Shown here: positions 10,919 to 14,618 of the stretch, one piece after another
How positions within the stretch are numbered: the stretch's first letter is position 1
Layout of the letters: each line of letters opens with the position of its first letter
Assembly: GCA_012295275.1 (NCBI GenBank)
Contig: CM022677.1
Span: 744,001-808,000 of the forward strand
DNA: 64,000 bases
DNA from: Chrysomallon squamiferum
Lineage: Eukaryota > Animalia > Mollusca
Reading direction: 5' to 3'
The notes under the pieces: model-generated
What the model saw: the letters and a program-made list of their open reading frames with translations, nothing else
What the model was told of the DNA's origin: nothing
Databases searched by the model: none
Program-made: the position numbers and the translations under genes

Positions 10919-13900
10919 TAAAAGTTAATACTAAAATAGATGAAGAAGAATACAATTTTATAAATGTATATGCACCAAATAATTGAAAAAAGAATTATAT
11001 TTTTTAAAGGATTATGTAAACTTGTCAGTTATTTTTAATTATAATTTGGTTGATATTTGGCGACACAGAAATCCAGATAAAAGGCAATTTACTAGATCTC
11101 AAATAGTTGAAAAAACTATAAAACAGTCAAGAATTGATTTATTCTTAATTTCTAGAAATTTATTACAGTTTATAAATAATGTATACATATCCTATACCTC
11201 GGTTAGTGATCACAATTTTTTATCACTTAAAATAGATTTTTCTCATGTAGAGAGAGGTCAAGGTATTTGGATTTTTAATAATGAATTGTTGAAAGATGAA
11301 AGTTTTTGTAAAGCTATTATTGAAGTTATTAATAATGTTTCTGAGTGTCCTTTGTTACAGACTGAACCTAGTGTTTGGTGGGACAACTTAAAATATAAAA
11401 TGAAAACATGTGCAAGAAATTTTGCAATAAAAAAAAAGAAAATCAGATAACGAAAAATATTATAATATACAAAATGCTTTGAAACGAGAATATGCTAAAC
11501 TAGCTGTAAATAAGCATCATGATTTGAATAACATACAAATTTTAGCAGAAAAATTTAAATTAATTGAGAGATCTAAATGTAATTTTAAGATGAAAGCTCA
11601 TTGGAATCTAGATATGGATAGAAGTACCACGTTTTTTCTCAGTTTAGAAAAATCAAAACAAGAATCAAATTCTATTAAAGAACTAAAAACAGTAAATGGA
11701 TTAACAAGAAAAACGGAAGATATATTACAATATGCTTATGACTTTTATTCAAAATTATTTACACAAGAAAATGTTGATATTATTAAACAGGAAGAAATAA
11801 TACATTTAATATCAAATAAACTAAAGGAATCTGAAAGTGAAAACTGTGAGAAAGACATTACAATTGAAGAATTAACTGAAGCTTTAAAAGAAATGAATAG
11901 AAATAAATCACCTGGTTTGGATGGTCTAACAGTTGAATTTTTAAAAATTTCTTTCATTAAGTAGTTATGTCAATTCAAAAAGAAGAAATGTCACGTACTA
12001 TGAAAAAAGGGGTAGTTAGTCCATTTTACAAGAAAAAAGCAGATAAAGAAGACCTATTAGTCTTTTAAATGTAGATTATAAAATTACTTCTAAAGTTCTT
12101 GCAGATCATCTTAAACAAGAAATGTCAACTATTAATTCATCAGAACAAAACTGTTGTGTAAAAGGAAGAGATGTTGCTGACAATATTATGTCAGTAAGAG
12201 ATATTATAGATATTGTCGAGTTAAATAATACAGAAGGGTATAAAGTTAAAATAGATAAAGAGAAAGCTTTTGACACAGTATCACGTAGTTTTATTTTAAA
12301 AGTTTTGAAAAAATTCAATTTTGGTGATAATTTTATAAAGTGGATTAAAATACTATATAATAATATAAAAAGTTGTGTAAAAATTAATGGACATTTAACA
12401 CTTTTTTTCAATATTACAAGAGGGGTTAGACAATATCAATGATGCTTTGTTATTGTAGCTGAACCCTTAAATAATTTAATTAAAAAAAGACAAAGCATGA
12501 ATGGAATTAGAATAACAAATGAACTTAATTCTTTATTATTTCAGCATGCAGATGATACTACAGTAACTGTCTGCGATGCTCAGTCAGTAGAAAATGTTTT
12601 TAATACAATAAATATGTATTGTAGTGCTACAGGGGCAAAAGTCAATGTAGATAAGTCAGAAGTACTTTGTCTTGGTAAAACCATGATTGAAAACTTATCT
12701 TTTAACATTCCAATATCAATAAATGAAAACTATGTTAAAATTATAGGCATATATTTAGGACCAAATAAACCATTATGTGAAAGATTGAACTGGAAAAATA
12801 AATTAGCTAAAATGTCTAATTTAATTAACTTATGGAGTCAAAGGAAACTTACTTTACACGGAAAAGCTGAAGTATGGAATACTTTATTAACATCTAGACT
12901 GTGGTATATGATTAGCACAATAAATGTACCAAATTGGGTAGAAAATGAAATTCATAAATTATTTTGTAAATTTATGTGGGAAGGAAAAACGCATTTAATA
13001 AAATATTCATCAATAATTGGAAATAAAATGTCGGGTGGACTAAATATTCAAGATATTTCATTAAAGAAAATGGCTTTTCGTATAAAAATGTTAAAGAAAT
13101 ATTTTATAATAATTTTAAAAATGTGTGGAAATATACAATGTCAATATTTCTTGAAAAATATATGAATATGAATCTAAATTATGACATTTTTAAAATAGTA
13201 TACAGTAAAGAAGCTTTAAAAGTTATCAATCCTCTTTTATGCTGAAATGTTATCAGCTTGGGACTATGTTAATAATGGAGAACGTAATTTCCCACTTGAT
13301 ACAGACGAAATATTGTCTCAGCCACTTTTTCAAAATCCATTCATTAAATATAAAAACAAATTATTATTATTTAGTTCTTTTACAAAAAGTGGAATAGTCA
13401 AAGTGGCTGATATTGCATATGAAGTAATATCAGGTATTCTTCCTTTTACAGCTATTGTAGAAATTATTCATGAAAAATCTCCAGAATTATCCAAAAACCT
13501 AATTTATATAGCTTACAATGTTATTAAGAAATCACTTCCAGATGAACGGAAAAGTTCTATTAACAGAAATGCTAAAAAAATTAACATCTAAGAAAGATTT
13601 ATTTTTGTTTCAGAATAATGAAATGATAAATGTCAGTAAATTTACAGTTAAAATAATTTATTCTATTTTAATTTTAAAAAACTTTAAAGCACCAACTTGT
13701 GAGGAAAAATGGAATGAGCTTGGTTTTAATATATTCTGGAGACCAGTTTGGAAATGGATACACTATAGTGATAAATTTACTGAATTTATAGACTTAGATT
13801 TTAGAACAGTTCATCATATAATATATACATGTAGTAAAATATATAAATATGGCAAAATCTCATCTAGTGTGTGTCCAGTTTGAAGGATGATGAAGATTTG

Positions 13901-14524
13901 TGCCATTTATTTTTGTATTGTGAAGAATTGAAGGAATTAATATCAATTTTTCATGAAATATATTTAAGAAAACAGGATTTTCTCTAGAGTAATTAAAAAG
14001 ATTATTAATATTTGGATGTTATCTAAAAATTGAAAATAGTACAATAGAATTTATTAATATTATTCTTTCAATTTATAGAATATCAGTGTTCAAAAGGCGT
14101 GTAATAGCTCAAATGAAAGGAACAAATATCAATATAATACATTTTTTAGAAATTATATGTATCAGTGCTTTAAAATCATTCTAAATCAATATCGTATTCA
14201 AAACAAACTTAAATTTTTATTAACAAATATGTTAAGAACAATATTTTCCTAGAACTAAAAGATCACATACTTATTTTCATATATCCTTTGGAAAGCTACA
14301 AATAATCAATATAGATATATCATTGAAATGGATAAAAGAATTAATACTATAAAATACTGTAAATATATATGAATATTCCGAATAAATAAGTATGGGTGCA
14401 TGTGAGTGTGACTGAGTGTGTGAGAGGAAACAGTTTTTATTATTGTTATTTACAGTTTTAATGTTATTTTAATTGTGTACAACTGTTGATTATAATAATA
14501 AAGATAAAAAAAAACAAAAAAAAA
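10919..14524 (+). mobile_element. Tx1/L1-clade non-LTR retrotransposon ORF2 (APE-RT-Zn) with 3' UTR, AATAAA and poly(A); frameshifted; 5' end lost in the gap
   Basis: INVYAPN, LVDIWRHRNP, SRIDLFLIS, SDHN, WIFNNELL, KSPGLDGLTVEF, DKEKAFDTVS, RGVRQ, QHADDTT, C-terminal CPV..HLFLYC; AATAAA 14497-14502; A-tail 14506-14524. Confidence 0.93.
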
Positions 14525-14618
14525 CACCGGTTCTCGTCCGATCACCGAAGTTAAGCAACGCAGGGCTCGGACAGTACTTGGATGGGTGACCGCCTGGGAA
14601 CACCGAGTGCCGTAGACA
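14521..14618 (+). rRNA. 5S: 5S rRNA gene 3' part (nt 22-119), 5' end displaced by the Tx1 insertion
   Basis: 98 nt identical to 16728-16825; directly abuts the poly(A) tail. Confidence 0.97.

Follow-up and report, generated by a model that had tools for sequence, protein, structure and literature searches.

The window, i.e., the entire 64-kb stretch of DNA that was analysed, contains a 5S rRNA gene interrupted by the 3' part of a decayed Tx1-type LINE and, 2.1 kb away, an intact 5S rRNA gene. The features of the locus are arranged as follows:

10719..10918, no strand: assembly gap of 200 N, covering the 5' part of the element and the 5' junction
10919..14254, + strand: decayed ORF2 of a Tx1-type LINE (end of the APE endonuclease, RT, C-terminal zinc-binding region), from tblastn and Pfam RVT_1
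14255..14505, + strand: 3' UTR with AATAAA (14497-14502) and GAT at its end, from the sequence
14506..14524, + strand: poly(A) tail with one C (14515), the last four A coinciding with 5S nt 22-25, from the sequence
14521..14618, + strand: interrupted 5S rRNA gene, nt 22-119, from identity to the intact copy and Rfam (RF00001, 54.1 bits)
14619..16706, + strand: 5S spacer with T-rich terminator, shared flank, microsatellites and an inverted RNase H-like fragment
16707..16825, + strand: intact 5S rRNA gene with A at nt 25 (Rfam, 114.4 bits)

All 98 bases of the interrupted copy (14521-14618) are identical to nt 22-119 of the intact gene (16728-16825), which confirms the statement of the initial annotation that the AATAAA signal and the poly(A) (14497-14524) run straight into 5S sequence. 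The junction, GTTG|AAAAC, is likewise found as described, and its position can be refined to a range from 21|22 to 25|26 because the poly(A) overlaps nt 22-25, the sole A-run of four or more in the gene. Beyond the T-rich tract, the 3' flanks of the two copies differ at 3 of 139 nt and at 8 of the next 95 nt, and the bases directly 3' of the interrupted gene resemble the commonest 5S 3' flank in public contigs of the species; the interrupted copy is thus a real 5S unit, as had been proposed. Neither the head of a SINE (SINE3 or another 5S-headed element) nor a processed pseudogene accounts for the 5S part, which sits 3' of the poly(A) and runs into normal spacer. The interrupted remnant retains the internal promoter, which we take to lie at approximately nt 50-97, and might still be transcribed. 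No further 5S pieces longer than 12 nt are present within the window.

The locus resembles the border of a 5S array that has undergone rearrangement. Spacer copies that lack a 5S gene lie at 1962-6847 (minus strand) and 57073-58867, and the motif that precedes the intact gene is followed by a T-run instead of 5S sequence at 17267 (plus strand) and at 3259, 5775 and 58308 (minus strand). The inverted RNase H-like fragment in the spacer (15031-15258, minus strand; Pfam RNase_H, E=0.016) apparently stems from another LINE family of the window and was amplified with the unit. This second family, presumably I-group-like, encodes a CCHC ORF1, APE, RT and RNase H and is found at 9057-10718, 38950-42595, 50480-54105, 55477-57275 and 63347-64000; two of its copies lie within an 11.5-kb duplicated block (34311-44079 and 45846-55501). 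The LINE to the left of the assembly gap was considered as the 5' half of the interrupting element and rejected, as it belongs to this different family, of which the window has further copies; the interrupting element therefore has its 5' end outside the visible sequence.

What remains of the interrupting element aligns over 10921-14254 to residues 107-1281 of P0001, a full-length relative that serves as reference for the decay of ORF2, with 48-72% identity per piece (tblastn). P0001 carries Exo_endo_phos, RVT_1 and zf-RVT domains (Pfam), and RVT_1 is also matched by pieces of the window copy. The ORF2 of this copy is dead, having approximately 11 frame changes relative to P0001, in-frame stops and deletions, and the stretch matching residues 135-179 is missing. 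An APE endonuclease, an RT and a C-terminal zinc-binding region in one ORF2, together with a poly(A) tail after a polyadenylation signal, are the attributes of the Tx1/L1 group; the mapping of ORF2 and its domains support the Tx1-type identity initially assigned to the element. The tail AATAAAGAT at the end of the window copy also ends two relatives, L003 and L004.

In nine of the 11 public sequencing runs listed for the species, 25-41% of the words of the element are present. The contigs nearest to the window copy show 7 differences in 307 letters (run X4, depth 2371) and 10 differences in 313 letters (run X2, depth 472), as against depths of 12-104 for more divergent element contigs; contig depth is a hint only and gives no copy number. 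These contigs indicate a younger, multicopy form of the element that is 2-3% diverged from the window copy. The comparison covers the element up to its poly(A) and stops short of the 3' flanks. Contigs of the RNA run X8 cover the element and not the 5S part, and contigs as such cannot show transcription.

Comparison of the intact 5S gene with contigs of four runs (X2, X4, X6 and X7) reveals that the junction recurs: among the matches listed, at least three contigs, all from X4, show the end of the element and its poly(A) leading into 5S nt 22, and their tails differ (agreement 0.81). This supports repeated use of the site. A candidate for the 5' junction is likewise found in one of the four runs, among the matches listed: contig 19 of X6 reads 5S nt 1-39 without mismatch and continues into 88 foreign letters, at a depth of 16.3 compared with 51 for the main 5S contig. 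The foreign letters are unlinked to the element; they match neither the window (up to 3 mismatches) nor the 142 relative loci described below (up to 5 mismatches) nor the genome_contigs collection. If this contig represents the 5' junction, the target site duplication would be 14-18 bp. At 5S nt 25 (16731), G is the majority letter in all four runs (12265 of 17812 in depth in X2, 165605 of 189917 in X4, 51 of 67 in X6 and all in X7), and the minority letter A is found in the intact gene of the window and in the candidate 5' junction contig; a contig of X2 with A25 continues to nt 42 with no break at nt 39. The association with A25 may reflect a preference for this variant or merely a local sub-array.

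The relatives of the element comprise 142 loci, 79 from metagenomes and 63 from genome bins that contain host DNA; ten of the latter are placed in the tree, and the others are 26-35% identical to P0001. The bins, from a GTDB-based collection, are bacterial but include contigs of animal origin on which LINEs, tRNA arrays and 5S genes are found (L081, L083-L086 and others), i.e., host contamination. G001 yields no 5S match, an uninformative result given that it is mostly a bacterial bin. A scan of viral_contigs with P0001, A1 and P0166 yielded no relative, and the poly(A)-5S junction pattern had 0 matches there. Seven loci (L001-L004 and L080-L082) fall into the same mollusc-type clade as the window element. 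Their targets were not foreseen in the initial annotation: the nearest relatives target tRNA genes. A tRNA gene is the target in five of the seven, which are all those with readable ends, and a 5S gene in none; no target is visible in the flanks of L080 and L082.

L081, with a DNA identity of 70% to the window element, shares a starred 7-row clade with it. At L081 both ends adjoin the same tRNA-Asp gene, nt 10 at the truncated 5' end and nt 21/22 at the poly(A), and 34 tandem tRNA-Asp genes follow beyond it. L003 meets its tRNA target at position 20-21 of the model (E=0.001) and L004 at approximately nt 21-22, with a weak score (E=0.11), whereas L001 and L002 can be read at the other end, where they are immediately preceded by nt 1-27 and 1-33, respectively, of tRNA-like sequences with weak scores (E=0.69 and E=0.028). 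We take the tRNA identities among the targets of the clade to include Tyr, Thr, Ser and Gln. The flanks of the sites differ, being GTTG|AAAAC in the 5S gene of the window and GTGA|GTATC or A|GAGCG in tRNA genes. In the four closest clusters, ENA proteins are often encoded on equal-sized contigs, which is what dense packing of copies in target arrays would produce. The named proteins within the clade come only from Mytilus and Patella, in keeping with the mollusc-like host that had been suggested from the sequence.

Phylogenies of the RT were calculated with FastTree for 216 rows and with IQ-TREE for hand-picked subsets of 47 and 45 rows (LG+G4, no mixture model). The window element is placed in a starred clade with L081, L080, L082 and ENA proteins, its closest rows being P0067, L080 and L082, and this clade is nested in a larger starred one that also includes L001 and L002. 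The mollusc-type clade adjoins the Mutsu-type clade, with weak support (87/66), and U2-inserted (Keno-type) loci fall in the outgroup, outside the window and Mutsu-type rows; the comparison includes neither a mammalian L1 nor a named Tx1L row. The cluster look-ups returned no protein named Mutsu; rows were assigned to the Mutsu type by visual comparison with the consensus of Fig. S10 and from the 5S junctions that L083 and L084 display. P0166 is about two-thirds identical to this consensus over approximately 110 residues, also by eye (PMC5340908, in its accessible parts). The initial annotation implied kinship with Mutsu and envisaged an RT tree with Mutsu among its rows. The tree places the element among mollusc-type relatives and not with the Mutsu-type rows, and AU tests reject one clade for the window group and four Mutsu-type rows (p=1.3e-10), for the window row and all 14 rows of the Mutsu-type clade (p=4.2e-8) and for the window group and these 14 rows (p=5e-4). 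A clade of all 5S users is rejected as well (p=9e-4). The groups tested were named after the first tree, and the Mutsu hypothesis came from the initial annotation.

Further 5S and snRNA genes are occupied by Tx1-type elements among the relatives. Within the clade with Mutsu-type proteins, L084 is joined to 5S at 20|21 and the 3' end of L083 at approximately nt 32, a site that is absent from the MutsuDr targets listed in Table S4 (PMC5340908, as far as its accessible parts show). L046 carries a degenerate head of 5S nt 1-39 (1021-1060), and its poly(A) leads into nt 30 (6199-6289); L032 (1794-1833, minus strand) contains a homologous element after 5S nt 40. These two loci represent a separate Tx1-type lineage with a 3' junction at 5S nt 29|30, a 5' junction at nt 39-40 and an implied duplication of approximately 10 bp; in the tree, L046 falls together with a locus inserted in U1 and is distant from the window element. 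Tx1-type elements are also found in U1 snRNA genes (L006-L008), in a U5 snRNA array (L107) and at the U2 site (L011, by its tree position only, and L013, L021, L023, L031, L032, L037 and L038).

The junction, its recurrence on contigs, the position of the element in the tree and the tRNA sites of its relatives are best explained by a 5S-preferring family of Tx1-type LINEs that descends from tRNA-targeting ancestors and is convergent with Mutsu. We consider this reading probable, with appreciable room for doubt; it implies that 5S genes would be preferred over other sites and that the change of target would have proceeded from tRNA to 5S genes. A tRNA-to-5S switch at the Mutsu base, independent of fish, is likely, and dual use of tRNA and 5S genes by an ancestor is possible. 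Non-LTR elements insert by target-primed reverse transcription, in which a bottom-strand nick made by the APE endonuclease primes the copying of the RNA by the RT. In an intact copy of the family, the endonuclease, which presumably reads out the site, may nick the bottom strand near 5S nt 21 (21|22 being the probable position), and the RT would then copy the polyadenylated RNA from there. A second nick near nt 39, as suggested by the unlinked contig, would give rise to the 14-18 bp duplication. Landing in a multicopy gene may limit the harm to the host, as argued for Mutsu.

Since the flanks of the sites differ, these elements must either recognise their targets loosely or be assisted by polymerase III factors, and the common location near +21 is a hint of such assistance. 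Within the group as a whole, however, the location varies, as the 5S sites at nt 30 and 32 indicate. A bolder generalisation, which we offer tentatively and regard as rather unlikely in its entirety, is that polymerase III genes of any kind (tRNA-Asp, -Tyr and -Thr, 5S) are targeted at about +21 by one widespread Tx1 lineage that takes its guidance from the polymerase III machinery and not solely from sequence; the use of 5S would then have arisen at least three times, in fish, in the snail and in the nt 29|30 lineage, and would here be tied to the minority A25 variant.

The main rival to a 5S-preferring family is one that mainly targets tRNA genes and uses 5S as a second site at a look-alike position. 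That all five readable ends among the seven clade loci lie in tRNA genes speaks for it. Non-5S sites of zebrafish Mutsu, as we read them, resemble the 5' parts of tRNAs. Dual use does occur in the group, as several zebrafish Mutsu copies sit outside 5S (Table S4 of PMC5340908, decoded by eye from the accessible part). The three junction contigs of X4 and the abundant 5' candidate, however, suggest that 5S is used more than occasionally, and we judge this alternative unlikely, albeit one to be reckoned with. Quite improbable is that the 5S junctions all go back to one old insertion, copied passively along with its 5S unit as the array underwent unequal crossing over. Units evidently get duplicated, as the spacer recurs rearranged and 5S-less four more times in the window, and differences in poly(A) length can come from slippage; a window copy 2-3% away from a high-depth form, however, fits a family that continued to move, and the relatives are site-specific.

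The initial annotation had cautioned that the site resembles the generic TT/AAAA preference of L1 and that one copy does not prove specificity. An L1-like preference for A-rich sites with a chance hit on the single A-run of 5S would be in line with the use of nt 22-25 and with the hit variant carrying A25, but the relatives insert at the same position in tRNA genes before GTATC or GAGCG, without an A-run, and 135 TGAAAA and 213 TTAAAA sites in the window make 5S a tiny share of such targets. This explanation is therefore very unlikely; the concern is weakened by the A-run-free sites, and the recurrent junction supports repeated, if not strictly specific, use of 5S. Orthology with fish Mutsu, the 5S targeting being inherited from a bilaterian ancestor, is equally hard to credit: the site is that of MutsuDr2-5, S2 and S3 (according to the accessible parts of PMC5340908) and the clades are neighbours, but the four AU tests reject the groupings tried and tRNA-targeting rows lie between.

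If the preferred reading of a 5S-preferring family with tRNA-targeting ancestry holds, an independent mollusc 5S lineage and its 70%-identical tRNA-Asp relative would provide two closely related endonucleases that differ in target. The pair of L081 and the window element makes target switching testable, and with it the question whether the site is dictated by sequence or by polymerase III factors.

The targeting of 5S genes by LINEs as such is already known from Mutsu in fish, and the mollusc case adds a likely independent lineage. In the accessible part of a 2024 review, LINEs in 5S are given only for fish (PMC10946416), and Jockey-like elements of beetle 5S arrays are described as not lying within the 5S gene (PMC11202950, in part). 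No LINE within an invertebrate 5S gene is reported in the portions of the literature searched; Repbase, Kojima and Fujiwara 2004 or the supplement of PMC4494074 may hold such families. With Keno (U2), Tx1L, Kibi, Koshi, Tx1-Mar and Dewa, the element shares membership of the Tx1 clade, the APE endonuclease and multicopy targets, but those elements use other targets; that of Dewa, compared by description only, is the tRNA-Leu spacer and not the gene (PMC4494074 and PMC3706591, both as partly accessible). In such elements the endonuclease mainly sets the target, and a family is regarded as target-specific if the target is present in >20% of flanks (PMC4494074, same parts). Dada DNA transposons offer a parallel in that related families (Dada-5S and tRNA families) share targets in the tRNA A-box region and in 5S, and target switches by sequence likeness have been suggested for them; Dada, unlike the present element, is a DNA transposase with 6-7 bp duplications and not a retroelement (PMC8869645, accessible text).

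The closest counterpart is zebrafish Mutsu (MutsuDr1-7, S2 and S3), which inserts approximately 20 nt into the 5S gene in sense orientation; projected on the 5S gene of the window, its 3' targets begin at nt 22 (Dr2-5, S2 and S3), nt 21 (Dr6 and 7) and nt 20 (Dr1) (PMC5340908, from the parts available). Like Mutsu, the element belongs to a family with an APE-RT ORF2 of approximately 1280 aa, is inserted in sense approximately 20 nt from the 5' end of 5S, at the site of most zebrafish subfamilies, and is possibly tied to one 5S variant (same source and parts). Unlike Mutsu, it resides in a host that is likely a snail, is only approximately 35% identical to the Mutsu-type P0166 and belongs to a separate clade, the nearest relatives of which sit in tRNA genes.
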